From a virus (taxonomy: Duplodnaviria > Caudoviricetes): a stretch of DNA of 64,000 bases. The translations under genes and the position numbers were made by a program. The DNA is taken from positions 1 to 64,000 of IMG/VR virus record IMGVR_UViG_3300033463_000072. One strand, given 5' to 3'. The first letter of the stretch is position 1. Every line of letters starts with the position of its first letter. This document shows, in pieces, positions 47,111 to 63,549 of this stretch. The notes under the pieces are model-generated. The model worked only from the letters and a program-made list of their open reading frames with translations, did not search any database and was not told the DNA's origin.

Positions 47111-48059
47111 CGAATGCATCACCATCGCTTAACAATTCTTGATTCAATTCTGCCGATCCTTCATACTCAATATCCGCGGTTTCATCCATATCAACTTTCT
47201 CGTTTTCAATTTCTTCTAAGCGCTCTGTCATGTTATAACGTTCACGTTTATCTTCAACTTGCTCTGCAAAGTTACCTTCATTCATTACTAATCTCTTTAA
47301 GTAGTTCTGAATGTTCTCCATCATAAAGTCAACCGAGTCTTGCGGCTCAGTATGCCAGTTTGGATGCCATCCTTTCTTACCATAATAAACCATTAGTTCG
47401 CCAACGGATTCAAAGTCAGCCGCAGATTTAGCATTTGTAGCGGTAAAATTGTACGTCTTAACGATGTTATCAATTGAGTCCATAATCTTCTTAACATCGC
47501 CGCCCTCACGTAGAATCTTTTTCGCCGCAAGCTGTAACTCACAAAGGTCTCGCGCCTTTTCTTGAAGAATAGGCGTAGATACGTTTTGCGTGGCAACAAT
47601 CTTATTATAGAAATTATCAAGCCAGAGTAGTTCTTCGGGGCGATAAACCGCAGACCAAGTTTTCTTCAACTTCTTGAGTTTAGCATCTCCAAGAACTTTA
47701 ATCTCGTCATCGATTGTTCCTTCAGCACGTGCTTGGCGCCATCTTTCGCTTTCATCCATCCAGCGCAATTGTTCATAATGGTCATCATATAAGAGATTAA
47801 AGTATGCAGTCAAAGTATGGTCCTTATGTTGCTCATAAAGTTGTGTCCATTTGTTGAGGTCGAATGGCAAGTCCAACCACCGCATCAATCTATCAACTTC
47901 ACCTAAGTTGTCCTGCTTTATCATCGTTTCAAGGCACGGCGTACAAATATAGCATCGTCCACCTGGGAAGAATTTGGAAGGAGTTGACTGGAAGAACTCT
48001 AAAGGTTGCTCTCTCTTACATTTGAGACAGCGTTTGATCTTTTTTTCTGAGGTCTCCAT
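47103..48059 (-). CDS. putative terminase small subunit/packaging protein with N-terminal Zn finger
   Basis: CLKC..CTPC; directly upstream of terL; no TAG. Confidence 0.55.
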   Translation of the reverse strand: METSEKKIKRCLKCKREQPLEFFQSTPSKFFPGGRCYICTPCLETMIKQDNLGEVDRLMRWLDLPFDLNKWTQLYEQHKDHTLTAYFNLLYDDHYEQLRWMDESERWRQARAEGTIDDEIKVLGDAKLKKLKKTWSAVYRPEELLWLDNFYNKIVATQNVSTPILQEKARDLCELQLAAKKILREGGDVKKIMDSIDNIVKTYNFTATNAKSAADFESVGELMVYYGKKGWHPNWHTEPQDSVDFMMENIQNYLKRLVMNEGNFAEQVEDKRERYNMTERLEEIENEKVDMDETADIEYEGSAELNQELLSDGDAFDE

Positions 48060-49326
48060 CTTTATTGATCACTCCTCTTCTAATGCGGGATTCTTTGTCG
48101 CATTGCTTACACGTATTCGACAACTTATCCTTATGTGCATTATTCTTACTAAAGAATAGTAAGTCCATTGGCAGCATGCGGCCGCAATGTATACATTTTT
48201 TACATCCTTCCATCGGAGTTTCTTGCTCCAGCCGCATCATGCGGGCAACCTGGGCAATCTTTTTCGGTACTTCATTACTTACAATCGACACCAAGTAGTT
48301 TGGTGAATATTCCATCGCATACTTTGCGCGCATTTCATCCAAAATGTCCTCATATGCCATGCCCTTTTTCCGCAAGTCAATGAGGAACAGCCGCAATTCG
48401 CTAAAATTACATAACGATACGTAGCGGTCGAAGTCCCATAGAAGGGTGCGCCCATAGGTATCTAACTTATCTTTTAATGCATCATATAGGGTATAATAAT
48501 GATTAAGTAGTGCGCGAACATGTTTAGGGTTCTCCCAATCAAACGTATGCTCACATACCACCCACTTTATCTCTAAATTATCCCCCTCCCCCCTAGTCTC
48601 ATAATCCGCAAGATTCTTGGAAATGCGGCTAGTATAGGAGTGATTGACGCGATTTTCCCACTATTCCTTCGTTAACCAATAGAAGGAATCGCCGCACCAA
48701 TCATAGAATTGCGGTTTTGGGTGATCTAAGTTTTGGAAGTGCAACGTCGGTTTGTACGAATCTTTCAAGTAGTACTGATGCTTGCGAATATCAATGAGGT
48801 TATGCTTTAGTTGATAAACTCGGTAGGGATCCGTGACAAGAGTGTCTTTTTCGTTCGCGGCAACCTTGCCCTGCGCAACGTCCAACATTCTCTACCATCT
48901 ATCAATAATTTCCCACTATTCGATCATGCCGGGGACGTCACTATCGCCGGGGTCAATCATCTCACCCGTCGTCTTATCATAGCGAGGTCGCTTTATACAT
49001 GGTTTCGGCACAGTATAAGCATCGCGCTTGTAGGCGCTGCGCAACTGTTGCTCATCGAAACCCGGCACCTCCATCATTTCATCTAACGATTGTACCTTAT
49101 CATCTTTTGTCTTATAACTCTTATATCTCTTATCTTTATCAATTGTTTCGTTTCTCTAAATTGAATTCTTGCCTTCCTCGTCCTTGCCGTATAGGATATA
49201 GGAGGCCATTTGTTCGAGTTCGGTAGGCGAGGGATTGGTAGGTAGTTCGTCGAGGATTTCTTCCACGGCGGCAAGCCTATCAGTGTCACGCACTATCGAA
49301 AAATCAAGTGAGTATTTCTTTTTCAT
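48016..49326 (-). CDS. putative DNA-binding regulator (HTH-like + C-terminal Zn finger), 436 aa with 4 TAG
   Basis: RBS GGAGGTGA, ATG 49326; translated through 4 TAG into fragments 48661 and 48016; CIHC..CKQC. Confidence 0.7.
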
Positions 49327-49552: not shown

Positions 49553-49581
49553 TTGCAATCTTTTTTTAGGTGTGTTATATT
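49553..49581 (+). promoter_or_regulatory. sigmaA promoter containing a palindrome half-site (TTTAGGTGT, 49565-49573) in its spacer
   Basis: TTGCAA-17-TATATT. Confidence 0.7.
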
Positions 49582-50376: not shown

Positions 50377-50447
50377 AGCCCCTCACCTTCCCCTTGTGGG
50401 GAACACCTAAATAATCGAACACCTAAATAAGCTGGGAGGACAGAGCA

Positions 50448-50732
50448 ATGAAAAAGCTGGTTAATCATTCCGTAATCAGTTCATACGAACTGATTCTGAA
50501 TTACGAAACTAACACCGCTGAATTACGGCGGTACAATCGCCCGGTAACGGCGAACGATGAAGGTACAATCTTTGTACAGAAGATTTCCGCTGAAAGCTAT
50601 TACCGCCTGCTGACCTATTTTGGCGGAGTAAGCTATTTCCGGGCGAACAAGCGGGAAGAGTGGTACACTTGCGGAGTGACCTTCCCCGGTTATGAGAACA
50701 GTGCGAGAACAGGTCGCCTGTTCCGGTTGTAA
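50448..50732 (+). CDS. hypothetical protein
   Basis: GGAGG RBS; followed by GAGAAGGGC-GAAA-GCCCTTCTC hairpin. Confidence 0.75.
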   Translation: MKKLVNHSVISSYELILNYETNTAELRRYNRPVTANDEGTIFVQKISAESYYRLLTYFGGVSYFRANKREEWYTCGVTFPGYENSARTGRLFRL

Positions 50733-50791
50733 GAGAAGGGCGAAAGCCCTTCTCAATTCTAACACCTAAATAATTGAAGGAGGACAATACA

Positions 50792-51013
50792 ATGAAGTGC
50801 ATCCGTATGAGTTTTGAACAGGTCCAGCGCATGAGAGCAAGACAGGACGGTTATGATGACTTTGAGGAGTGGTTAGAAGATACACCAGAAGAAGAACGGA
50901 GCAGTATATATGATTTAGTAGGAGAACCTTTTGACATTGTGCCTTATGACGGCGGTAAGGGTTACATTTTCCTTGATGATAAAGACCGTTACTGCATATG
51001 GGTGAAATACTGA
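50792..51013 (+). CDS. hypothetical acidic protein
   Basis: AAGGAGG RBS; terminator hairpin overlaps stop. Confidence 0.75.
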   Translation: MKCIRMSFEQVQRMRARQDGYDDFEEWLEDTPEEERSSIYDLVGEPFDIVPYDGGKGYIFLDDKDRYCIWVKY

Positions 51014-51165
51014 CGGGCAATTTTTGCCCGTCTAATTATTTAGGTGTTCGGAATAGTTAGTCACGACTAACACGCGCAATTATTTAGGTGTTCATCACCT
51101 AAATAGTATGGTTGACAAGGCGAGCGTATAGGTATATAATGTGTACAGTGAGGGGAGGATAGCAT

Positions 51166-51354
51166 ATGTATAATGGGATTATCGGTGGTTTTCTGCTGGG
51201 CGGCCTGCTGGCCGGAGCTATGTTCGGGCTTATACCTGGTGCTATACTCATGGGCTTAGGCGGCGCAGTAGCTGCGCTGCAAGCTGCCCAGGAAGCTAAA
51301 CGTGAAGAAGCTGAAGAAGGCTGGCGCAAGAGCTACCCTACGTACAAGTACTGA
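51166..51354 (+). CDS. small membrane protein with glycine-zipper helices
   Basis: GGFLLGGLLAGAMFG; own promoter and RBS. Confidence 0.75.
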   Translation: MYNGIIGGFLLGGLLAGAMFGLIPGAILMGLGGAVAALQAAQEAKREEAEEGWRKSYPTYKY

Positions 51355-51427
51355 GGGTAGCACTTATTTAGGTGTTACTCACCTAAATAATTATATTGAC
51401 ATATATATAAGATTGTATTATTATATA

Positions 51428-51553
51428 ATTGTCCTAAGGGGAGACGAGGCAGAGCCGTCAGAGCCTTCACGGGTGGGCGGTGTGACCCATGAGTGTCTGT
51501 AAGACCCTTTTAAGTGCCCCTTCACAATGACCCGTCGCCCAGGCAGGGCGACA
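51428..51553 (+). ncRNA. candidate small structured RNA (cassette without ORF)
   Basis: Promoter 51396-51424, no RBS-led ORF, AAGGGG/CCCCTT closing stem, terminal GTCGCCC/GGGCGAC hairpin. Confidence 0.55.
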
Positions 51554-51662
51554 TTTCATTCTGGAATTTAGGTGTTACTCACCTAAATAAAGGTATTGCA
51601 TTTTATCCCTATATATATTATAATATCATCAAGAGATAGAAAAACAAAAGGAGGATAATACA

Positions 51663-51830
51663 ATGAACTTCAAAACCCTTTACTGCGTGGTAACTGTCAA
51701 GAGCGGTCTGGTGGTGCGTCGCGGTTTCAAACAGTGGAGGAGCGCATGGAGCTATGCGCAAGCCGCAGATGACGGACATTTTGACGAAGAAGGCGGACTC
51801 CGTGTAGAAGGATATCGACTCCTCTTGTAA
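51663..51830 (+). CDS. hypothetical protein (55 aa, below ORF-track cutoff)
   Basis: Promoter, AAGGAGG RBS, MNFKTLYCVV..., hairpin after stop. Confidence 0.75.
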   Translation: MNFKTLYCVVTVKSGLVVRRGFKQWRSAWSYAQAADDGHFDEEGGLRVEGYRLLL

Positions 51831-51961
51831 TAGGGACACCGTCCCTATTTTATTTTTGAGATTTAGGTGTTGGTCACCTAAATATAGGTATTGCACTATT
51901 CCCGAAACTGTGCTATTATATACTTGTCCGAAGGGACAATAAATAGTGGAGGAGTTCCAGT

Positions 51962-52177
51962 ATGTATATTGAAGTTACCGTCGAAGAAGCCGCTCGTCTG
52001 TTCGCCCGTGGTGTCCATGTCTGGGATGATGCTGACCCTCGTTATGCCTGCACGTTTGAATTGCGCGGCACTCCCCGCAGCTGGAAAAAAGCTCGTCGCC
52101 TGCGCAAGCTGACCCGTAAGCTCCGCGGCCCGTGGGCTGGCCCAGAAGGACGCTGGTTTGTTTACAAGAGGACATAA
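51962..52177 (+). CDS. hypothetical basic protein
   Basis: Own promoter, RBS and terminator. Confidence 0.75.
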   Translation: MYIEVTVEEAARLFARGVHVWDDADPRYACTFELRGTPRSWKKARRLRKLTRKLRGPWAGPEGRWFVYKRT

Positions 52178-52291
52178 GTCCTCTTCCCATTATTTAGGTG
52201 TTCGTCACCTAAATATTAGTATTGCATTTTCCCGTAACTTATGCTATTATATACTCAGCCGAAGGGCAATAAAGAAAGTGAGGTTACTAAC

Positions 52292-52534
52292 ATGTTGGAT
52301 ACTCGTTACACAGGCGTTTTCATCAGGGTTATCAATGGCGCTCCCACTTCCTGTTGGATGGCTATTCAGGAGAATGACAATCCGACAGAACGTACCGATC
52401 TGGAACCGGACAAAGCGAAGAAGCTGATGTGGGAGCTGATGAAAGCTGGCGGCGATCGTGGCATCGATATGGATATCATTAATCCCAAAAGCTACTATTA
52501 CCACGTTTCTCATATGTTCTTCTGGTACCACTGA
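52292..52534 (+). CDS. hypothetical protein
   Basis: Own promoter, GAGGT RBS, terminator. Confidence 0.7.
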   Translation: MLDTRYTGVFIRVINGAPTSCWMAIQENDNPTERTDLEPDKAKKLMWELMKAGGDRGIDMDIINPKSYYYHVSHMFFWYH

Positions 52535-52658
52535 CCGGATTTTCCGGTCTTTTACTATTTAGGTGTTGGACACCTAAATTCATACTTGACAAAATCCCAT
52601 TACTAATGTTATAATTCCTTTGGAACAAAGGAATTAAACGAAAGAGAGGGGAAACAAA

Positions 52659-52940
52659 ATGACAACTCATACTTACGGAATCGAAAAACTGACTATGCGG
52701 CTCACCGTGAAACTTCCGGACAACTACGCAACTGTTCAGCGGCTTTATGACTATGGTGCATGGTTCAGGCTCCAGCGCGAGCATGTAACAGACCTTGACC
52801 GCATTGCTCACCTTATCGAGTATATCAAGAACAATGGCGGCGGCCAGATCGATGAAAATGTTTTCATTGATGACGATGATCTCCAAGAGAAACACACCTT
52901 CACATACGAACTTGTAAAGGATTATAAAAATAACGAGTGA
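52659..52940 (+). CDS. hypothetical protein
   Basis: Own promoter, RBS, terminator. Confidence 0.75.
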   Translation: MTTHTYGIEKLTMRLTVKLPDNYATVQRLYDYGAWFRLQREHVTDLDRIAHLIEYIKNNGGGQIDENVFIDDDDLQEKHTFTYELVKDYKNNE

Positions 52941-53052
52941 GGGTCTTTGACCCTCCCGTGATTATTTAGGTGTTAGTCACCTAAATTCTTATCTTGCGTT
53001 ATCAATCCATATGATATATAATTAGTATAGAAATTGAAGGGAGGATCGAAAA

Positions 53053-53211
53053 ATGGAGGAACAGAACAAGGAAGTCAAACAAGAGGAAGAAAAAGAAGAA
53101 AAATGGGCTTGGATTCGTTGTAATAATTGTGATTGTGTTTGCTTAGTCCCGAAACTGTACGCAATCGACCCGTTCCTTTGTTGGAATTGTATAGAGCTTT
53201 TATCAAGATAA
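53053..53211 (+). CDS. small Cys-rich protein (52 aa)
   Basis: GGGAGG RBS; CNNCDC...CWNC. Confidence 0.65.
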   Translation: MEEQNKEVKQEEEKEEKWAWIRCNNCDCVCLVPKLYAIDPFLCWNCIELLSR

Positions 53212-53222
53212 GGAGGACTACA

Positions 53223-53378
53223 ATGACTTACTACGAAATTTACTTCAACAATAACAAGTGGGAAGTATGGGAATGGACGGACTGCGGCACTCATGCCCGG
53301 TGTCTTAAAGTCTATAAAACCAAAAAAAGCGTAGAAAAATGGGCAGCAAAACAATGGTTAAAGGTCACTTGGCGGTGA
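53223..53378 (+). CDS. hypothetical protein (51 aa)
   Basis: AAGGAGG RBS; stop inside hairpin. Confidence 0.7.
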   Translation: MTYYEIYFNNNKWEVWEWTDCGTHARCLKVYKTKKSVEKWAAKQWLKVTWR

Positions 53379-53490
53379 CCTTTATAATTTAGGTGTTAAT
53401 CACCTAAATATATGTGTTGACAGATTGCACTCTATATGTTAATATACAATTGTCCAAAGGGACAATAAATAAAAGAAAGAGGTAGTTACA

Positions 53491-53778
53491 ATGGCACGGT
53501 ATCTTTATAGCAAGGCGGTTGCAGGTCACAACTATGCTCAGGCACAGGAAAACTTTTTCGATGACGGCACAGTCCAGCTCCAAAGCTACAGCACTATTAT
53601 CATTGAGATTGACCCGGAAGGCTGGCTCCATGTGACAGGGCTGTACAGCATGACCACGATCAAGCACATCGGCTGGTTCATGCGCTCCCGTGGTTTGTCC
53701 TACCAGCTGGCGAAACAGATGTTGTACGATCACAAAGACTACAACGTCCGGACGGGCGAAGTTCGGGACTGGAAGTAA
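53491..53778 (+). CDS. conserved phage hypothetical protein
   Basis: LQSYSTII...GLYSMTTIKHIGWF motif of a widespread small phage family. Confidence 0.75.
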   Translation: MARYLYSKAVAGHNYAQAQENFFDDGTVQLQSYSTIIIEIDPEGWLHVTGLYSMTTIKHIGWFMRSRGLSYQLAKQMLYDHKDYNVRTGEVRDWK

Positions 53779-53829
53779 TTCCAGCCCTTTTAGATTTAGG
53801 TGTTCGACACCTAAATTAAAACCCTTGCA

Positions 53830-54180
53830 TTACTGCAAGGGGTCACCGGTAATTTCATAGATGTTCATATTATCATACAGGGGTTCAGAAATCTTGTATC
53901 CTTTATCAATCAGCTCTTTATATGTAGTGGGTTCTGTGATTGAAATGGTATACGTATGTTCGCCGGTAGGTACTTTTCTCGCGCCTATAGCAATTACTGC
54001 AACCAAAACAATAGTTATAAGAAGACCAAAAATTGCGGCGAAACAATGACCGCCGGATGAATCGTTGCTCAAGGTCGCAAACAAGATAATAGTAGCAACC
54101 ATCACCACCAGATTAACAATAAAACAAACATCTACCCACCCAGGCCAGTCCATAATTGCAACATCTTTCAGAATTTCCAT
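53830..54180 (-). CDS. 2-TM membrane protein in inverted cassette
   Basis: - strand promoter, AAGGAGG RBS, stop-in-loop hairpin; paralog of 59801..60187. Confidence 0.8.
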   Translation of the reverse strand: MEILKDVAIMDWPGWVDVCFIVNLVVMVATIILFATLSNDSSGGHCFAAIFGLLITIVLVAVIAIGARKVPTGEHTYTISITEPTTYKELIDKGYKISEPLYDNMNIYEITGDPLQ

Positions 54181-54323
54181 ACTCAATTCCTCCTTTACTG
54201 TACTCATTATATCACATTCTGACAGAATTTCAATATGAAAATTTAGGTGTTCGACACCTAATATTTATGGTTGCATAAAATCCCAAAACATGGTATATTG
54301 ATAATGTAAAGGAGGCATACATT

Positions 54324-54551
54324 ATGAGATACTTAATTGAAAGTTGGCGTTTTGATCCTCTTTATGACGGCGGCGATTATACCGGCGAGTTTGTCCCTCT
54401 GCCCGATGTATTCAAGGATTCATGGGATGAAGCCCTCGCGTACTTTGTCGAACAGGTAAAAAATCCGATGTGCGACCAGTGCTTTGTTACTGCCATATGG
54501 AACAACAAACCATATGAAGATGACGAGCCGGTACTGTCATACTGTCCTTAA
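54324..54551 (+). CDS. hypothetical acidic protein
   Basis: Own promoter, AAGGAGG RBS, hairpin. Confidence 0.75.
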   Translation: MRYLIESWRFDPLYDGGDYTGEFVPLPDVFKDSWDEALAYFVEQVKNPMCDQCFVTAIWNNKPYEDDEPVLSYCP

Positions 54552-54626
54552 TAAGGACAGTATATATTTAGGTGTTAGACACCTAATTTTATATATTGAT
54601 ATTATTCCAAAACATGGTATAATACA

Positions 54627-54817
54627 ATTGTTCAAGGGAAATCGAGCGGACCGGAAATAGGTACGGTGAGTCAATAAGGCTTATAATCCATGGTAAACCA
54701 GACGTAACCCTTGAATAGGGCAAGAGCAAATGTCCTGTGAGTACCATCTGATCAATGGAAAAATAGTAGAAATGTGCGGCGGCGCGAGGGGCGACCTAAA
54801 TACCTCTTGCTTGCTTG
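54627..54817 (+). ncRNA. candidate structured RNA (~190 nt)
   Basis: Promoter 54596-54623; TTCAAGGG/CCCTTGAA closing stem around several hairpins; no RBS-led ORF. Confidence 0.55.
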
Positions 54818-54879
54818 AATTTAGGTGTTATACACCTAAAATAATATGTTGACTTTCTACACAGATGTGATATAATACA

Positions 54880-55214
54880 ATTGTTCCAAGGGAAGAACCA
54901 AAGGGCCACCAAAAGAAGCTTAAAGATTCTTCGGTGGTGTGGAGTAGGGCTTATAGGAAACTATAAGTGGCGAACGCGAGTAGTGAACCGAGGAAAAGCG
55001 GTACTGACGAGTGCCCAAAAATCCTTTTACGAGGCAGAGGATGTGGAGAGGCGATACGGATAGCTGTAGCTCGGCGCGAGCTACTGCGAGCGTAAGTGTA
55101 GTAAAAGGTATCTTGCGAGGAGTGGAGCGCAAGGCCAAGCGCGGGTGAGGTTTCACGGGTGAACGCCGTGGTGTAGCAAGATGAAAGGTGTACTTCGCGA
55201 GTACACCTTTCTTT
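54880..55214 (+). ncRNA. candidate large structured RNA (~335 nt)
   Basis: Promoter 54849-54876; at least 7 hairpins; 11-bp terminator with T-tract; no RBS-led ORF. Confidence 0.65.
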
Positions 55215-55305
55215 AATTCTATGATTTAGGTGTCAAACACCTAAATTATTAGTTTGACATTATATGCGTATATGATATAATGTATATGAAAGGAGATGTT
55301 ACAAA

Positions 55306-55866
55306 ATGTACGTAGGAATGTTTATTAGTAGGCATAAGGATAATAGATGTGTTCTTAATTTTCAATCTCGTACCAAAATGTTCTTCATGGATAAAGAAAT
55401 TCCCGCTTATTATAAAGATTTTAAACAATTTGTTGAAGAAGGACAGCCCGGCGAAATGTGTCGTTTTTACATGAGCGCAAGTGAGCGTAATATGGAAAAG
55501 ACGCAAAAAGAACTCGCATGCCGTCTTATTAGAGAACCTATCGACTTTACTCGGCTTAATGGTATTGCAACATCTATTGCAATGAAATCGGAACAAGAAA
55601 CCTTTAAAAAATGGTTATTTGATTTTGACTGTCCTATTACTGGCTTAATGATGGAATTTTGTAGTGAGTTAATGGACATGGGATTTATTCCTAAGTGGTA
55701 TCTCTCTCCTAATGGTTACTCTGTTATCATTGAACACGGTTTTGATATTCGTGAATTTCTTGACCGTTGGAATAAACGTTTACAGCAGATTGATCCGAAA
55801 TACAGTGTAGAACTTAAACGCAATGCAATGGTGATTGTGGATTGGGAAACTAAAAGTGCCGAATAA
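55306..55866 (+). CDS. conserved phage protein, possible AEP/PrimPol-like fold
   Basis: FISRHKDN, WLFDFD, SPNGYSV..EHGFD; own promoter and terminator. Confidence 0.7.
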   Translation: MYVGMFISRHKDNRCVLNFQSRTKMFFMDKEIPAYYKDFKQFVEEGQPGEMCRFYMSASERNMEKTQKELACRLIREPIDFTRLNGIATSIAMKSEQETFKKWLFDFDCPITGLMMEFCSELMDMGFIPKWYLSPNGYSVIIEHGFDIREFLDRWNKRLQQIDPKYSVELKRNAMVIVDWETKSAE

Positions 55867-55969
55867 TCGGCACTTCCCATAATTTAGGTGTTCGACACTT
55901 AAATCTTGATATCGACAATCATATATATATCTGCTATAATATTTATAGTTCAAGGAAGGAGAACTGATT

Positions 55970-56137
55970 GTGAAACGATTTAAAGTATTGCTGATTATCA
56001 CCGCGCTTCTCGGCTTGCTGGTTCTTGCCGGATGTGAAGCGCAATATCGCCCCGAAGGTAGTAACTGGTCTTTCGGGACGGATGCGTCCATTTATTATAC
56101 TCCTAAGAATAGTAAATGGACAATCAAAGTTTGGTAA
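55970..56137 (+). CDS. small lipoprotein (55 aa)
   Basis: GTG start with AAGGAG RBS; MKRFK + hydrophobic stretch + LAGC lipobox. Confidence 0.75.
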   Translation: MKRFKVLLIITALLGLLVLAGCEAQYRPEGSNWSFGTDASIYYTPKNSKWTIKVW

Positions 56138-56274
56138 CTATGGGAACATGCCAATAGGCATATTTCCCTATTTCATTTAGGTGTTCGACACTTAAATAAT
56201 CGTATTGACTTCTATATAATATATGTTATAATAAGATTGTCCAAAGGGACAGCAAAGGAAAGGAGATAAAAAGC

Positions 56275-56514
56275 ATGTACCTCTTCTATGCGGAACGTAA
56301 CGGATGGATCCCAGCAGGCAGCGATGGTCAACTTAAGTTGCCGAGAAATAACATGTCTCGCCGTGCCATTGAAGATGTGGCAAGAAAGTTCATTGGCAAT
56401 AGAGCTGGCGTGATATATCTTATGCATGAGTGGACACAGCAGATGTCTGAATTGGGACCGTGGGCATTCTCATGGTATATTGCTCGCAACGGCGAAAAGG
56501 TGGTGTATAATTAA
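56275..56514 (+). CDS. hypothetical protein
   Basis: Own promoter and RBS. Confidence 0.75.
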   Translation: MYLFYAERNGWIPAGSDGQLKLPRNNMSRRAIEDVARKFIGNRAGVIYLMHEWTQQMSELGPWAFSWYIARNGEKVVYN

Positions 56515-56722
56515 TGTCCGGCTTATATTATGCTCGTGCTCCCACTATGGAAACCTAATTATATACGTTGATAGAGATAATGTGGCGGCCACTCCCAGGC
56601 CGCCAATTGTTTTTTATTATTTAGGTGTTAGACACCTAATCATACTACTTGCATTATTCTTATAACTATGATAATATAAACATGCACCAAGAGTGCAAAT
56701 AAAATTAAGGAGATGCGTTACA

Positions 56723-56965
56723 ATGACAATGATAGTTGAAAGAAATCTGAAGGATTTTGAGTTCTGGGGAGGCGCCGAGGATGTCGCCGCAAAACTGACC
56801 ACCGAAGAGCTGAATACTATCGAGGAAACTCTTGAACAGATAATCGGCTATGGAAGTGAGCTGTGGAGTGAAACTCAAGTCAATGACTTTATGGCTTTTG
56901 ACTTTGAAGATTATTGTGAAGAATGGATTGGTGTTAGCTATGAGGAAGTAATGGCAAGGGAGTGA
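56723..56965 (+). CDS. acidic hypothetical protein (FEFWGGA motif)
   Basis: AAGGAG RBS; own promoter. Confidence 0.75.
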   Translation: MTMIVERNLKDFEFWGGAEDVAAKLTTEELNTIEETLEQIIGYGSELWSETQVNDFMAFDFEDYCEEWIGVSYEEVMARE

Positions 56966-56969
56966 AACT

Positions 56970-57152
56970 ATGATTAACATTGGACTTTTCAACCTCATTG
57001 TCTATCTGCCCTGGTGGGTGTTTCTGCTGATTCCGCTTGTTCCTTTTATTCTCGCGGGCATCGTTACCCTTATCGTTTACATCTCGGAAAGGTTCTTTTA
57101 AGACTCCATTGGAGTCTTTTTATATTTAGGTGTTCAACACCTAACCACATGA
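56970..57152 (+). CDS. small membrane protein (60 aa) reading through hairpin and palindrome
   Basis: GGGAG RBS; hydrophobic LPWWVFLLIPLVP. Confidence 0.6.
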
Positions 57153-57224
57153 CTTGCAAAACTATATAGTATATGATATAGTATAACTGTCCAAAGGGAC
57201 TAATAAGGGAAAGAAGGTAGTAGC

Positions 57225-57449
57225 ATGGTAAAGGTAACAAAGGCACTCGCAAAAAAGTTGTACGATGAAGGTGAAGCGGTTATGGTCATTCCTAATCGTA
57301 TTCGCCCTACCAGCCAGCTTGCACATTGGACTACAAAGCCTGCTAATGATCCCAATGCGGACTTTGAAAAGCTGTGCAACGCAATCTTCTACTATAACTG
57401 TTCTCCCGAAACCGGCATGAAGCTGGCATATTATGTGAAAGAGGTGTAA
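57225..57449 (+). CDS. conserved phage hypothetical protein
   Basis: AKKLYDEG...YYNCSPETG pattern; own promoter. Confidence 0.75.
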   Translation: MVKVTKALAKKLYDEGEAVMVIPNRIRPTSQLAHWTTKPANDPNADFEKLCNAIFYYNCSPETGMKLAYYVKEV

Positions 57450-57452
57450 ACG

Positions 57453-57719
57453 ATGACCGTAGAAGGTAATTTCAAGTGGGATTTGGATATCCCTAACATG
57501 GAGCTGGATGAGTTGGATGCTCTCATGACGGCTTGTGAGCGTGCCCGAAAGAACATTATTAAACTCAGCCTTATTGAGCGGTTTGATCAGCTGGTCGATG
57601 AAGCAAAACAAAATGACTGTTATTTTGAAACAGTCTCCCGTAGCGGCGAAGTGGTTGGTTTGACCAATCCCAATAATGTTTGTCTCCAGGACTATCCCAA
57701 ACCTCAGTTGGAAGTATAA
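57453..57719 (+). CDS. hypothetical protein
   Basis: GAGGT RBS; hairpin at stop. Confidence 0.7.
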   Translation: MTVEGNFKWDLDIPNMELDELDALMTACERARKNIIKLSLIERFDQLVDEAKQNDCYFETVSRSGEVVGLTNPNNVCLQDYPKPQLEV

Positions 57720-57834
57720 TGCGCTTACAAGCGCATTATATTTTCATTTCAATTAGGTGTTAAACACCTAATACCATACATTGACAATCCTATAACCATA
57801 TGATATACTCATACCGTGAAAGGGGGATTCCAAG

Positions 57835-58161
57835 ATGGCAGAAATGACCTACCACGTATCAGTAGACCGAGCCGAGCGAGTGAAGAATATCGTAGAAAAA
57901 ATCGGCATGGGACAAATCATTAAAGAAAAGTATATCGGTTATGGTATCGGTGGACCAGCTGGGCGGTATGTCTGCATCACGGATACCGGGGTTACTATCA
58001 TCAAAGATGAAAAGAAAGAGAAAATCATCACCATGTATGTAACCACGCAGAAAGAGCTGGTTCAGGTCTACGGTGGCACTAAAAAAATTCCACCCTTCCT
58101 GCGGAAAAAGGTAGACTATAATCAGAGTAAGTTTACTGAAGATGGTAAGACTATTTGGTAA
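57835..58161 (+). CDS. hypothetical protein
   Basis: Own promoter and RBS. Confidence 0.75.
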   Translation: MAEMTYHVSVDRAERVKNIVEKIGMGQIIKEKYIGYGIGGPAGRYVCITDTGVTIIKDEKKEKIITMYVTTQKELVQVYGGTKKIPPFLRKKVDYNQSKFTEDGKTIW

Positions 58162-58182
58162 TGAAGGGAGAAAAGATATAAA

Positions 58183-58344
58183 ATGAAAATTATCTGTACA
58201 GAAGAAGAAAAAAAGGGTCTTATGAATATACTTGACAGTTCGTGGGATTGTCCCTTTAATCCCGAAGCCTGCGGCAGTGATAAGTGTGAAGAATGTTTAA
58301 ATGGTAAAAGAATCCAGTGGGAAATTATAGAAGGGGGTGAATAA
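58183..58344 (+). CDS. small Cys-containing protein (53 aa)
   Basis: GGGAG RBS; CPF...C...CEEC. Confidence 0.65.
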   Translation: MKIICTEEEKKGLMNILDSSWDCPFNPEACGSDKCEECLNGKRIQWEIIEGGE

Positions 58345-58345
58345 A

Positions 58346-58483
58346 ATGTTGGGTATCGCAGTTATCGTATTGGCTATTCTGTATTGGTGCGGAACTATTC
58401 CGGCTAATGCTCTCGCCATCGTATCCGTGATCTACGTGGTGTGCAATTTCATCGTTGAACTGTCACGCAAACTGAACGACTAA
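58346..58483 (+). CDS. small membrane protein (45 aa)
   Basis: GGGGGTGA RBS; two hydrophobic segments. Confidence 0.65.
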   Translation: MLGIAVIVLAILYWCGTIPANALAIVSVIYVVCNFIVELSRKLND

Positions 58484-58507
58484 TATGAGTTGATAGGAGT
58501 GAAAAGT

Positions 58508-58654
58508 ATGAACTATATGAGAGCCATGTGTACCGCCCTTTGTATCGCACAGATTTGGGCGCTTGGTGCGGACAAAACATATCAGAAAGTAATAGCATAT
58601 ATCTTTGCTATTCTTGCATGGGTACTGTGCGTATGGGTAATACCTTGGGACTAA
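58508..58654 (+). CDS. small membrane protein (48 aa)
   Basis: AGGAGTGA RBS; stop in hairpin loop. Confidence 0.65.
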   Translation: MNYMRAMCTALCIAQIWALGADKTYQKVIAYIFAILAWVLCVWVIPWD

Positions 58655-58703
58655 TCCCAAGGTTTATGTTTAGGTGTTAAACACCTAATAGTATAGTATC
58701 GCA

Positions 58704-59009
58704 TTACTGCGATACAAATACTTTCTTATATTCTTCACTGTGCTTACCAATATAAACGGCAAGACCATCGCTTCTCGGCCACTCAAATCTGTCACCACGA
58801 ATTGTACGGACAATCTGAAGCAACACGTCATAAGGATAGAAGATTATACTTGCCCACCGCCGCGGCCGAATAATCAACACGCAACCGCTTTTGAGATTAT
58901 ATGCCACGCACTTAAACAGACGTCGTTTCCACGGGCGCATCCAACTGACATAGCCATAGCATACATCTCGCCATACTGCCACTGGTAAATGTTTCACATA
59001 CTCTTTCAT
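58704..59009 (-). CDS. hypothetical basic protein in inverted cassette
   Basis: - strand promoter 59040-59067, GGAGGAG RBS, stop-in-loop hairpin. Confidence 0.75.
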   Translation of the reverse strand: MKEYVKHLPVAVWRDVCYGYVSWMRPWKRRLFKCVAYNLKSGCVLIIRPRRWASIIFYPYDVLLQIVRTIRGDRFEWPRSDGLAVYIGKHSEEYKKVFVSQ

Positions 59010-59154
59010 CGTTCCACTCCTCTCCCTGATTACATTTACATTATAGCATAAAGTCTATAAATTGCAATAGGATAATTTAGGTGTTAAACACCTAAAATTA
59101 AAGTTTGACAAATATTAAATTTATGATATAATTCTATTGTAAGGAGGGATATGC

Positions 59155-59307
59155 ATGGGTAAGAAGAAGAAGCAGAAACCCAAAACTTGGGTTGAAGTGT
59201 TTCAATCCGAGCGTAAAACGTTTCCTCAAGGTTACTGCGTAAGTCGAGTGATAGAGGACAAGCGCAATAAACCGCCGAAGCATAAGAAAGGATGGGAAGA
59301 AGAATGA
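59155..59307 (+). CDS. small basic protein (50 aa)
   Basis: AAGGAGG RBS; MGKKKKQK...PPKHK. Confidence 0.7.
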   Translation: MGKKKKQKPKTWVEVFQSERKTFPQGYCVSRVIEDKRNKPPKHKKGWEEE

Positions 59308-59582
59308 AGCTCTATACTGTTGAAAGAATTAGTCATCGTAAAGATGATTCCATTTCGGAAATTCAAGGTGTATATTCCAGCCTTCATAATACCTATGTTG
59401 CTATCGGACAAGAACTGAAAGAGGATAAAATTAACATTAATCTGATTAGCAAAACTAAGTACAGTATTGATGTACCCGAAGAAGCAACGGATGGTTGGAT
59501 TTATCCTCATACTTATCATATCGAAAGTCATGTGCTTGACTGTGATATTGACGAGGACGATGACGAAAATGATGATGATTAA
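59304..59582 (+). CDS. hypothetical protein with acidic tail
   Basis: ATGA overlap with upstream gene. Confidence 0.7.
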   Translation: MKLYTVERISHRKDDSISEIQGVYSSLHNTYVAIGQELKEDKININLISKTKYSIDVPEEATDGWIYPHTYHIESHVLDCDIDEDDDENDDD

Positions 59583-59799
59583 ATTCATTAGCCGAGTTAT
59601 TCGGCACGATATTGACACCGGACACAAACTCAAAGAACGTGGAATCCATGTATTCGGTTCAATCTATAAAGTGCATATGCCTTATAAGGGAAAACCGTGG
59701 ACATATTTTTGGCTTCGTAGTGAACTGAATGATGACTTAAAGTATTGGTATCGTGTAACTGATTACTTCTTCATTGAAAGTAAGAAAGGATGGAAATAA
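59569..59799 (+). CDS. hypothetical protein
   Basis: GAGGA RBS; operonic. Confidence 0.65.
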   Translation: MMMIKFISRVIRHDIDTGHKLKERGIHVFGSIYKVHMPYKGKPWTYFWLRSELNDDLKYWYRVTDYFFIESKKGWK

Positions 59800-59800
59800 T

Positions 59801-60187
59801 ATGAGTATCCTTCAGGTAATTACTTGCTATGATGTTAAAGTATTGTTAGATGTAGCAATTATTGGCATTATAGCGTGCGCCATTAGTGGTATAGTCATTT
59901 ATATTTTACACGACGATTATAACACTCCCGCTACTGTAATAAAAATGATTTTTCTGTTCGTTTTCGTTATAGGTTTTATCCTCATTGCAATCGGTGGTGC
60001 AACCAAAACAACTACCCCTTCCGAAACTAAACGAACCTACGTAGTAACAATCACTGATAACGATATGTATCCCAAACTTTATGAACAGGGCTATACTATC
60101 GAACGTCAGTATGACATGGGTAATGTTTATAAGATTACCGGCCCGATTATCGAAAATGAATCCGACTATATGGAAAATGGGACTTGA
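59801..60187 (+). CDS. 2-TM membrane protein, paralog of 53830..54180
   Basis: Two hydrophobic helices + TYVVTITD..Y..L...GY...Y.ITG domain. Confidence 0.8.
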   Translation: MSILQVITCYDVKVLLDVAIIGIIACAISGIVIYILHDDYNTPATVIKMIFLFVFVIGFILIAIGGATKTTTPSETKRTYVVTITDNDMYPKLYEQGYTIERQYDMGNVYKITGPIIENESDYMENGT

Positions 60188-60301
60188 AATCCCATTTCCA
60201 AATCTTTAGGTGTTAAACACCTAATTAAATGAATTGACAAATCCTATAACTTGAAGTAATATATAATTGTTCCAAGAGGAACAAAGAAGGAGGAATGGAA
60301 A

Positions 60302-60448
60302 ATGGGTACTCTGTATGTAGCAAAAAGTTTTGGACGATATTTCTTCTTTAAGACAGAAGCAGAGCGTGATGCTTACGTGGAAACTCTGCCGGAATGGGAA
60401 AAGAAGTATGTCCAGCTCTCTGTTAGCCGCTTTGGGAAGGTGACCTAA
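60302..60448 (+). CDS. hypothetical protein (48 aa)
   Basis: Own promoter, AAGGAGG RBS. Confidence 0.7.
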   Translation: MGTLYVAKSFGRYFFFKTEAERDAYVETLPEWEKKYVQLSVSRFGKVT

Positions 60449-60449
60449 T

Positions 60450-60662
60450 ATGACTACAAGGGTGTATTACATGCCGAATAATAACGTTTCTCGGCTACTG
60501 CTCAACTCCATGTTCTCTCGTGTTGGTTGTAGTATCGGTGAAATCACAACCAACCCCACACATGAAACTATACGAGTTCCTATCACTTGTGAGGATAAGG
60601 ATATTCGTACTGTTGAAAGAATACTCAAACTCTATGGAATTATAGGAGATGTGAAAAAATGA
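60450..60662 (+). CDS. hypothetical protein
   Basis: Operonic ORF. Confidence 0.65.
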   Translation: MTTRVYYMPNNNVSRLLLNSMFSRVGCSIGEITTNPTHETIRVPITCEDKDIRTVERILKLYGIIGDVKK

Positions 60663-60919
60663 GTAACACAAGAACATCAACAACAACGTCTGGTGTCGGT
60701 ATTCTCGAACTTCTGACAGTGGCCTTCGTAATCCTTAAACTGTGCCATGTCATTGACTGGTCATGGTGGTGGGTACTCGCGCCCACATGGATTCCTCTGG
60801 CATTCGCCGCTGTGATTCTGATCGTTTGCGGTATCATCAAACTGATCGGGTGGATTCTCGGTCGCAGACGCCGCAAGCAGAGAGAACAGTTTGTCTTTAC
60901 CTCCCGTTCCCGCACATGA
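60659..60919 (+). CDS. conserved small phage membrane protein (LKL..VIDWSWWWV..P motif)
   Basis: Motif and two TM helices; stop in hairpin loop. Confidence 0.75.
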   Translation: MSNTRTSTTTSGVGILELLTVAFVILKLCHVIDWSWWWVLAPTWIPLAFAAVILIVCGIIKLIGWILGRRRRKQREQFVFTSRSRT

Positions 60920-60995
60920 TGCGGGAATTTTTATTTAGGTGTTAAACACCTAAAACTAACTGTTGACATATTAGTATCAATAGTATATACTATAA

Positions 60996-61282
60996 TTGTT
61001 CCAAGAGAGATCACTGATTCACACTAATCGGCCTCTCGGAAAACCGTTGTTAGACCAAGAGTTGAATCGATAACAAAACTCTCGGCGGTTTAGAAGTTTG
61101 CTTTCTGGTTGCGATTGTGCTTCTTCCGTGAAGAGAAGCAGAAACGGGGAACCGGTAGCGATTGTGAATCAAAAGACCTACAACCGGAGATCAGAGGAGT
61201 CATGACCCGAGATCAAAGGAATTGTTATCTTAGAGGTCACAAAAAAGAGACAGTAAACAGTGTGGTTTACTGTCTTGCGCTA
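60996..61282 (+). ncRNA. candidate large structured RNA (~285 nt)
   Basis: Promoter 60963-60991; five or more long hairpins; 11-bp terminal hairpin; no RBS-led ORF. Confidence 0.6.
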
Positions 61283-61399
61283 GATCCAAATTTAGGTGTT
61301 AAACACCTAACTGTATCTATTGCATTTTCACAATAGTATGATATAATACTTATGAAAAGTGAAGGACACACTATAACACCGGAAAGGATTTAAAATCGT

Positions 61400-61774
61400 A
61401 TGGCACAGAATTTCATGGACAGAATGTCGGAAATCGGTGAAGAGAGAGTTCGTCTTGCGGTTGAGCGGAGAATGGCGGTAATTCGCCGGGAAGCGGAAGA
61501 GAGAGAGGAAGAGAAGCGGGGTTTTCTGCAGGAGCTGGCTCCTGCTCTGACCAAATACAGTGAAACCAAAGAGCTGTTTACCACTTATAAGCTCGGAAAA
61601 GCTGTCTATGGTCGTCGTTATCTGGATTCGGATCAGATCAATGGTGAGTATTATTGTTTCGTTTTGCCTGCAAAGATCGGCGCGACCCTTCAGGAACTGG
61701 CTGAAATCGGTGTTCTGAAGTGCATCGAAGGTGTCAATAATCCCTACTGCCCCTATCTGTATCAGTTCGCCTAA
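61400..61774 (+). CDS. hypothetical protein (coiled N-terminus, winged-helix-like C-terminus)
   Basis: Own promoter, RBS, terminator. Confidence 0.7.
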   Translation: MAQNFMDRMSEIGEERVRLAVERRMAVIRREAEEREEEKRGFLQELAPALTKYSETKELFTTYKLGKAVYGRRYLDSDQINGEYYCFVLPAKIGATLQELAEIGVLKCIEGVNNPYCPYLYQFA

Positions 61775-61832
61775 GCACCCTACGGGGTGCCCTTTTTATT
61801 AGGTGTTAAACACCTAATTGGGATTCTGCCGA

Positions 61833-62135
61833 TTACGGCAGAGTATCTTCTTTATCTTTCGATCTATCTCTAAAAATCCAATAGAAAACCGCACAGACTC
61901 CACAAATCAGAAGCAACAGACCTTTTCCGACAAGTGTAATAACTATCGCAGGCAAGGTAACTATCGTAGCAAGAACCATACAAATGATTCTACCAGCAAG
62001 ATTCAACTCGCCTTTAGTGGCGCGCCAAATCCAATCCAAGTGTCCGAAGGTTTCTTCAGTTGCGGCATTAAGCGCCCCAACCGCAACATTCACGAAGAAA
62101 AGAATAAAGAAAAGAATTACCCAAACGATCGTCAT
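61833..62135 (-). CDS. membrane protein in inverted segment
   Basis: AAGGAG RBS; hydrophobic helices; stop-in-loop hairpin. Confidence 0.75.
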   Translation of the reverse strand: MTIVWVILFFILFFVNVAVGALNAATEETFGHLDWIWRATKGELNLAGRIICMVLATIVTLPAIVITLVGKGLLLLICGVCAVFYWIFRDRSKDKEDTLP

Positions 62136-62154
62136 AATTTATTTCTCCTTTAAA

Positions 62155-62352
62155 TTATCCTACTAATCCACCAGCAACAACAATTCCCAAGAATACCAGC
62201 GCCAAACCGAGAAGAGTAAGTAACACAAATATACCGGTAAATATATAATCACCATCTCCAAAAGACTCTTTGATTCCAAGAATTGTTAATCCAGTTCCAG
62301 CAAGACCAGCACAGATACACAGTGTTGCCATTATAATTCGTATCCACAGCAT
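62155..62352 (-). CDS. 2-TM small membrane protein
   Basis: AAGGAGG RBS before ATG 62352. Confidence 0.7.
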   Translation of the reverse strand: MLWIRIIMATLCICAGLAGTGLTILGIKESFGDGDYIFTGIFVLLTLLGLALVFLGIVVAGGLVG

Positions 62353-62365
62353 TTTACCATCCTCC

Positions 62366-62557
62366 TTACTTACAGAAAAATAATCCAATTCCCAAACCGA
62401 GTATAATTACTCCCGAAAGGCAAACTATTATACTGCCGACAAACAGTTCAAAATCGTCCCTGTCCCTGATATTTTCACGCAGTAGTGAAACACCACCGCA
62501 AAAAAGAAATATTCCCGCAAAAATGGTCATTATTGCTACGAGGTATACTCCTATCAC
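62366..62557 (-). CDS. 2-TM small membrane protein
   Basis: GTG start, hydrophobic pattern similar to neighbour. Confidence 0.7.
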   Translation of the reverse strand: MIGVYLVAIMTIFAGIFLFCGGVSLLRENIRDRDDFELFVGSIIVCLSGVIILGLGIGLFFCK

Positions 62558-62558
62558 A

Positions 62559-62834
62559 TTACCATCCCCTTATCTTTCTTCTCAGATTATCATACCAACT
62601 CGGTACATACTGTGTAACAATAAACACTTCATAACGGTCAAAGCGAGTTGTACCATCAGACCGCTTGACTACCTTATACATAGTATGACCTTTCCAAACA
62701 TGCTTGCCATACTCATAGATATAATTGAGAATAGCAAAGTCATCAAGAGTAGGAAGAAAGTCCTGTTCCATATAAGAATACTGTTCCGTATCCGCATTAA
62801 ACAGACAAACTCTTTTAATCTTAATCGCTTTCAT
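62559..62834 (-). CDS. hypothetical protein
   Basis: - strand promoter 62857-62884, AAGGAG RBS. Confidence 0.7.
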   Translation of the reverse strand: MKAIKIKRVCLFNADTEQYSYMEQDFLPTLDDFAILNYIYEYGKHVWKGHTMYKVVKRSDGTTRFDRYEVFIVTQYVPSWYDNLRRKIRGW

Positions 62835-62979
62835 CCTTCCATCTCCTTTCATAAGCATTATATCATATCTATAAAATAAATCAATACACATATTTAGGTG
62901 TTCAACACATAAATATATTAGTTGACATTCTATATATCATATGATAGAATGACTATGGTAAATGAAAGGAGTTGAAGGA

Positions 62980-63429
62980 ATGAAAACTATCTTCTTCGAT
63001 ATGGACGGTACACTGAATCGTCTGTATGACTACCCTAATTGGTTGGAAAAACTGCGTGCATTTGACCCCTCTCCGTATGCCGAAGCTGAGGTTAATCTTA
63101 ATATGAGTCTGTTGGCGCGGTATCTGAATAAACTGCGTACAATGGGATTCCGGGTGGAAATCATCAGCTGGCTTTCCCAGATTCCCAATCCTGCTTATGA
63201 CCAGGCTGTAACCGCTGAAAAGTATAGCTGGCTGGATAAGCATCTCGGCTCTGTTGAGTTTGATGCTATCCATATCACGGCCTATGGTGTCCCGAAGCAG
63301 AACTTTATCACCGAAGAGGATGACATTCTTTTCGATGATAACGCCGCCATCCGTCAGGCATGGACAGGGCAAGCCTATGAACCGTCTGAAATTCTGACTG
63401 TTCTGTACAATCTCATCAAGGGGAATTAA
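62980..63429 (+). CDS. HAD-family 5'(3')-deoxyribonucleotidase-like phosphatase
   Basis: FFDMDGTL motif I, EKYSWL, ILFDDN motif IV. Confidence 0.85.
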   Translation: MKTIFFDMDGTLNRLYDYPNWLEKLRAFDPSPYAEAEVNLNMSLLARYLNKLRTMGFRVEIISWLSQIPNPAYDQAVTAEKYSWLDKHLGSVEFDAIHITAYGVPKQNFITEEDDILFDDNAAIRQAWTGQAYEPSEILTVLYNLIKGN

Positions 63430-63549
63430 TCCCCTTTACTTAATTTAGGTGTTCAACACCTAAAATATAGTTTTGACAAATACGTACAACTATGGTACAA
63501 TATGTATGCAATAGAGGAAGGATACCTCACAAACCGAAGGAGTTACGAT

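Follow-up and report, generated by a model that had tools for sequence, protein, structure and literature searches.

The window, by which we mean the whole 64,000-nt stretch analyzed here, is part of an 84-kb contig of a cattle-gut phage and contains an array of small units joined by a 23-bp palindrome (Table 1). A search for ATTTAGGTG-N5-CACCTAAAT with up to three mismatches returned 26 matches within 12.4 kb, against 0.03 expected from shuffled sequences; outside the array, neither the rest of the window nor the rest of the contig contained a match. This agrees with the original prediction, made from the letters of the window, which had counted 26 copies and seen no full copy elsewhere. The array runs beyond the window to about position 74,500, and the contig carries 40 palindromes in total. 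The span first proposed, 50402-63465, holds for full sites from 51082 onward, whereas 50402-51050 contains half-sites only. Across 511 sites the arm columns are about 90-100% invariant, and the center is variable. The same architecture was present in about 30 related SPbeta-like gut phages. tRNA and Rfam scans of the array gave no match, and we found no published description of the motif or system in the literature searched, coverage of which was incomplete.

Table 1. Features of the array and its left boundary (positions in the window)
Feature	Position	Strand	Remarks
436-aa late gene	48016..49326	-	4 in-frame TAG; first gene of the divergent yonG/terminase operon; fixed landmark to the left of the array and control in the co-variation test
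sigma-A-type promoter of head gene	49553..49581	+	half-site TTAGGTGT at 49566-49573 in the -35/-10 spacer; A-tract upstream
Head gene, 196-aa PD-(D/E)XK-fold protein P0001	49786..50376	+	first gene of the array; candidate palindrome reader
Degenerate array head	50403..51050	+	right half-sites 50403, 50419, 50762; left half-site 51039
Two small ORFs among the half-sites of the array head	50448-50732, 50792-51013	+	within 50403-51050
Palindrome, consensus ATTTAGGTGTT-N-AACACCTAAAT	51082..63465	.	26 sites in the window, 14 further beyond
Palindrome starts 1-13	51082, 51366, 51566, 51861, 52192, 52557, 52964, 53387, 53794, 54241, 54566, 54819, 55224
Palindrome starts 14-26	55882, 56175, 56619, 57124, 57751, 58668, 59075, 60204, 60933, 61290, 61797, 62892, 63443
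ORF-less unit, candidate small RNA	51389..51565	+	structure z 0.2, not significant
Single-gene unit, forward	52215..52556	+	absent from G006 at the same place
Inverted unit, ORF of ~116 aa	53817..54240	-	promoter adjoins site 54241, terminator adjoins site 53794
Two ORF-less units, candidate small RNAs	54589-54818, 54842-55223	+	z -0.8 (not significant), -2.5
Units with F3 (56693-56965), F2 (57225-57449), F14 (57835-58161)	56642..58667	+	rival binder candidates
Inverted unit, 101-aa ORF (58704-59009)	58691..59074	-	absent from G006
ORF-less unit, candidate small RNA	60956..61289	+	z about -2.1; precise indel versus L092
Inverted multi-gene unit	61820..62891	-	family F21, on either strand in relatives

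The array consists of repeated terminator/early-promoter composite elements between ORFans; most of the encoded proteins remained unnamed in Pfam and PHROG searches. The elements follow the predicted order in most units, but three units in the window are inverted. Sites 53794, 58668, and 61797 therefore lack a promoter and lie between two terminators, while sites 54241, 59075, and 62892 are flanked by promoters on both sides. Some units had been described as structured RNAs. They are indeed ORF-less, but their predicted structure is modest or not significant (z values in Table 1), and none of the four had an Rfam match.

The palindrome occupies a fixed position at the promoters scored in this clade. 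A gap of 7 bp separates it from the -35 element in 372 of 517 promoters, and one of 5-8 bp in 469, with a second cluster at 16-19 bp, one helix turn further; the 6-9 bp given originally was a loose range around what is essentially a fixed spacing. Distant phages with variant palindromes also keep the 7-bp gap (18/19, 20/20, and 12/13 promoters), even where the palindrome is shorter by 1 bp. The letters within the gap vary (283 kinds among 337), and on the terminator side the gap is loose (0-20). In the cattle-gut phage, about 35 early promoters are preceded by a palindrome at 7 bp. Sites without a promoter, between convergent terminators, match the consensus as well as the remaining sites do (0.27 mismatches in both cases), for which a role as operator alone does not account.

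Between relatives, whole units have been gained or lost at the palindrome, or have changed position or orientation there. The inverted unit at 53817-54240 is precisely missing in G006 and L098; its left flank is identical to G006 (60/60), and the right flank resumes at the site. The unit at 54589-54818 is likewise a precise indel relative to these two phages, the unit at 51389-51565 is relocated as a whole in L098 (76% identical end to end), and the unit at 52215-52556 is found in L092 after the leader of the next unit. Palindromes cover about 5% of the array, and 49 of 116 alignment ends fall on them. Unit order is mostly conserved (Kendall tau 0.83-0.9). The units are portable and breakpoints map inside the palindrome, so this half of the original interpretation is upheld. 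In assembled Logan contigs aligned to 63-76 kb of the genome, the joints had short sides matching at 90% and derived mostly from other phages, which made them unreliable as evidence of mini-circles such as those formed by PeSL cassettes during infection.

The array begins with the gene for P0001, which was named by neither Pfam nor PHROG and for which we found no relative in cultured phages. Its structural model (pLDDT 90) places a conserved D..(D/E)xK motif on an alpha/beta core, with strands at 62-66 and 69-77, and residues D61, E74, and K76 are invariant down to 28% identity. The top five structural matches all have a PD-(D/E)XK-type fold, although the matches are weak (Z 5.0-6.0, below 8; Foldseek E ~0.1); the best were HhaI (Z 6.0) and I-Ssp6803I (Z 5.5, rmsd 5.1 over 126 residues). 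In the Atlas, P0001 scores 0.94 to a restriction-endonuclease cluster. P0001 appears to be a restriction-endonuclease-fold protein, newly reported here, and neither a recombinase nor an HTH repressor. The head families are linked by hhalign with E 5e-7 and, weakly, with E 0.0025 for family 3 (30 rows), which alone comprises more than 150 clusters. Families 1 and 2 keep the catalytic D/E/K. For family 2, the Atlas search gave no usable match, and the fold search returned mostly helical noise and one restriction enzyme at Z 5.5.

Each of the 28 arrays tested has a head-family gene or a remote relative in first position, three of these being recognized through a weak match. An initial assignment of G006, G010, and G012 as lacking the head nuclease was rejected when the family link was recovered. 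In three complete early regions, which share the gene families and contain 28-39 promoters, both the palindrome and the head gene are missing and A-tracts precede the -35 element; the phages concerned are genome fragments and may represent a single early-region lineage. Site variants follow the genome rather than the cassette (Jaccard 0.27 versus 0.05), and they track the distance between head proteins in a Mantel test (rho 0.53, permutation p <=0.0007), a test that is not independent of phylogeny and in which the proximal sites are physically coupled to the head gene. The controls explained little: the partial rho was 0.51 given the adjacent 436-aa gene and 0.60 given a cassette protein. Phages G000 and G006 have identical YonG, yet differ in head protein and site variant; G006 and L130 have a head clade and site variant in common, while their core gene is only 50% identical. 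Head proteins that are only about 13% identical occur with the same core palindrome arms.

From the anatomy, spacing, breakpoints, co-occurrence, co-variation, and fold class we infer, at about even odds (roughly 0.5), that P0001 regulates the early promoters by binding the palindromes, and that the repeat doubles as a recombination seam similar to that of PeSL cassettes. The palindrome would be the operator for a DNA-binding protein of two-fold symmetry that the phage encodes, most likely P0001; an operator role is suggested because the site lies exactly 7 bp, or one helix turn more, before the -35 element. Bound there, where the palindrome-free relatives carry an A-tract UP element, P0001 would switch about 35 strong host-sigma-A promoters together, its probable role being that of a master switch and not of a classical recombinase. 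Delayed shut-off is slightly favored as the direction of the switch, and activation is possible. The half-site in the head-gene promoter makes autoregulation a candidate, and P0001 probably controls its own promoter through it; about seven relatives have a similar half-site, including L106 with its own variant. Recombination by Sak4-type annealing, possibly helped by P0001 nicks, would take the palindrome as its seam because no other symmetric, nearly invariant repeat at each terminator/promoter joint is as long; the complete relatives encode a Sak4-like annealing protein. Whole promoter-gene-terminator units would then be deleted, inserted, moved, or inverted with promoter geometry intact. 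The original prediction had offered, as its alternative, a regulator that binds here and also sets the crossover points; this option fits best given the strict phasing to the -35 element. As a counterpoint, a pure regulator need not retain the catalytic residues of families 1 and 2.

These residues also allow for cleavage. The head nuclease might cut or nick the palindrome center, with phage ligase or annealing proteins rejoining the ends either way, as an integron-like system based on a restriction-type enzyme, and regulation being secondary, which we regard as unlikely. The precise indels, relocations, and inversions, as well as the retention of promoter-less sites, agree with cutting, and the palindrome, 23 bp long with constant arms around a variable center, resembles the 23-bp pseudo-palindromic target of I-Ssp6803I (PMC3384342), the second-ranked fold match. 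In close pairs, the crossover lies inside the palindrome, left of center, and the spacers of partner sites often differ. However, unit order is largely retained, and in relatives without the palindrome the same genes are rearranged to an equal or greater degree (tau 0.45-0.82 versus 0.83). A further 15 alignment ends fall in leaders, and many others at ORF borders. The spacer match between neighboring sites barely exceeds that at distance 2 (0.34 versus 0.33); adjacent-spacer identity is mostly a positional gradient, and target-site duplication was rejected. In family 3, glycine replaces the catalytic lysine. Cutting leaves the exact phasing unexplained, and 40 cuts in the phage's own early DNA would be costly. 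We also consider it doubtful that a restriction-fold protein both regulates and cuts the 40-copy joint. This would be an integron-like system without an integrase: cleavage and ligation would excise, invert, and exchange the self-contained units, and head alleles would co-evolve with site variants as co-infecting phages compete.

The head gene could instead encode a free-standing endonuclease of the homing or competition type, sitting in an exchangeable slot, that cuts the palindromes of co-infecting relatives, its own proximal sites drifting to escape, with the operator read by a different conserved phage protein. Head alleles are indeed swapped at this fixed locus between near-identical genomes, with changes in orientation, and nuclease genes are known at exchange boundaries (PMC10055350). 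Site variants accumulate close to the nuclease gene (1.76 deviations in sites 1-5 versus 0.5 in sites 21-35), and a highly conserved HTH gene is present in the replication module of the complete relatives. This explanation nevertheless appears quite unlikely, since distal sites with the shared consensus would be self-targets, the loss of the head gene coincides with the loss of all palindromes, and a half-site lies in the head gene's own promoter. Restriction-site avoidance was rejected as the source of the variants, as no genome-specific depleted word explains them. The palindrome-free phages could also have lost another binder, either the HTH gene product or F2, F3, or F14. The latter three are candidates because they are also missing from these phages; they are disfavored, as they were not detected in L107 or L109.

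It is improbable that the palindrome has no reader at all and is a copied part of the promoter module (a terminator aid or an UP-like element) that gene conversion has propagated, with shuffling due to homologous recombination alone. Sites are homogenized within genomes, and leaders are also shared and also serve as breakpoints; but the symmetric arms are near-invariant across phages whose proteins are 28% identical, changes occur symmetrically in both arms, and the palindrome is tightly linked to one gene. The main idea of the original prediction, in which the palindrome would be att-like and serve a classical recombinase of the tyrosine or serine type encoded by phage or host, is very improbable: the arm-spacer-arm anatomy, the breakpoints within the site, and the inverted units are compatible with it, but PF00589, PF00239, PF07508, and PF01797 had no match in two complete relatives (controls were positive; PF01797, the Y1 transposase of REP/RAYT systems, matched none of five records), partner spacers often differ, and the motif is missing from host genomes. 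GTDB yielded only four single chance matches, and a host Xer, ParB, or regulator site was rejected on the same ground. The prediction is thus supported for portable units with breakpoints in the palindrome, and not supported for the recombinase.

If P0001 is the regulator, it is an early-gene master regulator built on a restriction-enzyme fold and widespread in uncultured, abundant gut phages; if it cuts, the array represents a new kind of gene-cassette engine. The palindrome delimits hundreds of early genes and candidate small RNAs that are self-contained, and functions in host takeover and anti-defense are likely to be common among them. The SPO1/Twort host-takeover regions are similar in having many small early genes behind strong host promoters, and the SPO1 module is not known to contain a phased palindromic joint. 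Mycobacteriophage stoperators are also repeated regulator sites; they are short, asymmetric, and dispersed. Like an integron, the array has repeat-bounded units, a candidate enzyme gene at its head, and polarity along its length; unlike an integron, it has no IntI or attC anatomy, each unit has its own promoter and terminator, and the order is stable.

I-Ssp6803I, a PD-(D/E)XK homing endonuclease with a 23-bp pseudo-palindromic target (PMC3384342), resembles P0001 in fold class, by the weak match, and in the length and symmetry of the putative target; however, homing enzymes have one target in the empty allele, whereas the putative target here occurs in 40 copies in the same genome. The autorepression of I-TevI is a precedent for a homing nuclease repressing its own gene (PMC3384342). 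In Bacillus phage SPbeta, the 15-bp SPBRE motif occurs at about 10 dispersed promoters and is read by MrpR (YopR) (PMC10516654). The lineage is similar (YonB, YonD, and YonG homologs), as is the repeated promoter element, and MrpR is a master regulator derived from a DNA-processing enzyme, as we propose for P0001. MrpR has a dead tyrosine-recombinase fold, whereas the head protein has a PD-(D/E)XK fold with a mostly intact triad; the 40 palindromes are clustered, and no integrase was found.

The promoter/stem-loop (PeSL) cassettes of T4-type phages (PMC2839356, PMC4122927) share repeated terminator/promoter joints in a variable early region where ORFan units are gained and lost, and no dedicated recombinase was found. 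PeSL crossovers map between the -10 element and the ATG, without a separate symmetric site or cognate protein; the array described here differs in its discrete 23-bp palindrome as the main seam, in inversion, in phasing to the -35 element, and in co-variation with one protein. Whether a dedicated helper protein shuffles the cassettes or shuffling is a by-product of recombination was left open for PeSL (PMC2839356). The palindrome system provides a named site and a named candidate protein, along with variant pairs and knock-out lineages that occur in nature, which makes this question testable with a small protein and an oligonucleotide. The array phage itself is not T4-type: its terminase is closest to those of Geobacillus E3 and SPbeta-like phages (32-36%), and it carries Yon-family genes.

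A pattern search with ATTTAGGTG-N5-CACCTAAAT returned 26 matches in the window, all at 51082-63465 (0.03 expected), and none elsewhere in it. This agrees with the 26 copies of the original prediction, and the palindrome-array pattern is real. The array had been said to start at 50402; however, only half-sites occur before the first full site. The phage contig is 83.8 kb long and the window covers its first 64 kb; the array extends to ~74,500, with 40 sites in total. The usual joint has the predicted order of terminator hairpin, site, 7 bp, sigma-A-type promoter, RBS, and small ORF(s), but the window has three inverted units, which leave certain sites flanked by terminators on both sides and others by promoters. 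Units proposed to encode structured RNAs do lack ORFs; however, only some fold better than shuffles, and none has an Rfam match. An inverted unit terminates most arrays. In 174 of 245 units the terminator hairpin contains the stop codon of the last ORF, and hairpins vary when the last gene varies, as if remade from the gene's own 3' end.

Coordinates of the features discussed (unprefixed, window; L-prefixed, other sequence records)
Feature	Position	Strand	Remark
GIY-YIG homing-endonuclease-like gene	12151-13095		3 in-frame TAG; adjoins nucleotide-metabolism genes
Late genes	12151-49326		TAG read as amino acid (code 15)
Head gene	49786-50376	+	D61, E74, K76 invariant
Half-sites alone	50402-51050
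Relocated unit	51389-51565		moved in L098
Relocated unit	52215-52556		moved in L092
Stop codon in hairpin, examples	53766-53790, 55850-55875
Unit absent from G006	53817-54240		60/60 identical bases up to site; homology restarts directly after it
Unit absent from G006	54589-54818		same precise pattern
Paralogous cassettes	L034:1447-2541, L034:4925-5968		first has PcfJ-like domain
NAD-salvage-like genes	L034:8557-9778, L035:6523-9050		nicotinamidase, phosphoribosyltransferase, NAD synthetase
ORF-less stretch after last site	L035:1000-1450 (genome 74,500-74,950)		several AAGCTGG repeats; candidate origin/packaging-related signal
Helicase-like gene, 451 aa	L035:2270-3625	-	ResIII domain, 7 TAG; directly past array
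DnaA-box-like repeats	L091:3400-4046		TTATCCACAG, upstream of head gene of a distant relative

Thirty-three IMG/VR stretches contain the motif, and in 12 genomes, the present one included, it forms arrays of 20-41 sites; GTDB genomes gave four single chance matches and nothing else, and our literature search found no paper on it. In distant phages the architecture persists with symmetric variant palindromes, namely TTTAGATGT-N3-ACATCTAAT in contig L109, TTTACATGT-N3-ACATGTAAA in L107, and one shorter by 1 bp in L106. The metagenomes that best match the phage are from bovine gut, and its complete relatives measure 181-183 kb. Judging by its terminase and its homologs of YonB, YonD, and YonG, it belongs to the broad SPbeta-like group of Firmicutes phages. 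The terminase operon adjoins the array and diverges from it; promoters and gene sizes suggest that the array is an early region of host-takeover type. The late genes read TAG as a sense codon, a known phenomenon (bioRxiv 10.1101/2021.08.26.457843): reading through TAG raised the coding cover of 15-49 kb from 0.75 to 0.98 and yielded a 3714-aa tape measure. TAG is rare as a stop in cassette genes (6/364), and some relatives (L085, L087, L089) are seemingly without recoding.

Sequence comparisons indicate that the units are mobile and that the palindrome is the seam, in line with the portable cassettes originally proposed. Relative to genome G006, whose units are 80-97% identical, two units of the window and one past it are precisely absent, and G006 carries three additional units at a single site. 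Two units are relocated in other relatives, and L089 carries family F39 as a whole unit in inverted orientation. Alignments among four close genomes gave 116 ends, of which 49 fell at sites (~5% of the sequence), although the genome pairs are non-independent and the shared repeat itself draws alignment ends; 15 fell in leaders, and the remainder at gene borders or divergent stretches. Close pairs that are informative place the crossover within the site, whose centre moves with the downstream unit. The comparison of cassettes among relatives that had been proposed thus placed breakpoints at the palindrome, but unit order was mostly conserved (median Kendall tau 0.9, and 0.83 by a second method); mobility is not free shuffling. 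The paralogous cassettes in L034 and a duplication of family F0 imply that units duplicate within the array.

We assign a probability of about one half to a reading in which the product of the head gene, the first gene of the array, is bound to the palindrome at the UP-element position and regulates the early promoters together, the repeat doubling as a recombination seam. The bound protein would act on its own promoter too, and the symmetric repeat would serve homology-driven gain, loss, relocation, and inversion. A half-site lies in the spacer of the head gene's promoter, likewise in about seven relatives, with L106 carrying its own variant there. A head-family gene was present in 28 of 28 arrays tested, counting a third family by weak match (E 0.0025, 158 columns, probability 12%). 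In G006, G010, and G012 the head gene is dissimilar at sight, yet remotely homologous by hhalign (92%, E 5e-7). In the third family Gly replaces the Lys, and its arrays have their own variant palindrome at the same spacing. The head protein has a confident structure model and weak, consistent matches to restriction enzymes and to I-Ssp6803I, a homing enzyme of the PD-(D/E)XK class whose pseudo-palindromic target spans 23 bp (PMC3384342).

Seven contigs that are just as close by the 436-aa late gene lack both palindromes and head gene beside it. Three of them span the whole early region, with the same gene families, 28-39 promoters, and A-tracts upstream of the -35, but no palindrome and, by unfiltered HMM search, no head gene. 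Gene order in these palindrome-free contigs, which are fragments and perhaps one lineage, is not steadier (tau 0.45-0.82), and rearrangement therefore does not need the palindrome. Cassette genes F2, F3, and F14 are likewise absent from the palindrome-free contigs, but two distant palindrome arrays also gave no match to them.

The site is predicted to behave like an operator. The predicted close spacing to the promoter held, but it is tighter than the 6-9 bp proposed: of 517 scored promoters, 372 have a gap to the -35 of exactly 7 bp and 469 one of 5-8; another group clusters at 16-19. The three distant clades also show 7 bp. The identity of these seven bases is unconstrained, and the terminator-side gap is loose. 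Recombination by itself would call for no such spacing. Promoter-less sites are equally intact; either the site is more than an operator, or such joints arose recently or have been homogenised.

Site variants follow the genome, not the cassette. Near the head gene (sites 1-10 of each array) units are short and variants genome-specific, whereas distal units are longer and their sites consensus. Distances between head proteins correlated with the variant profile (rho 0.53; partial values under two controls, 0.51 and 0.60; p at most 0.0007 by permutation), with linkage and shared ancestry as confounders; control genes showed hardly any correlation. G000 and G006 have identical YonG and differing head alleles and variants; G006 and contig L130, whose core genes are just 50% identical, have the same head clade and variant.

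That the head protein cuts and drives cassette exchange is unlikely. A homing or competition nuclease beside a separate regulator seems rather improbable. A palindrome without any reader is hard to credit. A classical recombinase, one of the options originally proposed for the palindrome, is very improbable: tyrosine, small serine, large serine, and Y1 families had no match in two complete relatives, where positive controls worked. Both relatives encode a Sak4-like annealing protein and, by eye, a ligase-like gene; a RuvC-like gene lies within the window.

The array works similarly to PeSL cassettes (PMC2839356, PMC4122927) and, on the regulatory side, to SPBRE/MrpR (PMC10516654), yet belongs to neither, and it is not an integron. 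The present analysis adds a candidate protein, the co-variation, and a palindrome-free lineage.

The 451-aa helicase-like gene is outside the gene set common to genomes G001 and G002 and is present in G025. The NAD-salvage-like genes were judged by eye from translations; NadR-like and PnuC-like genes of that set share one cassette. In the palindrome-free L138-L142 and L148 (G016-G022), the early region has its head part in inverted orientation, and CCGG or GCCGGC occurs in almost all promoter spacers, possibly another operator or a methylation signal.
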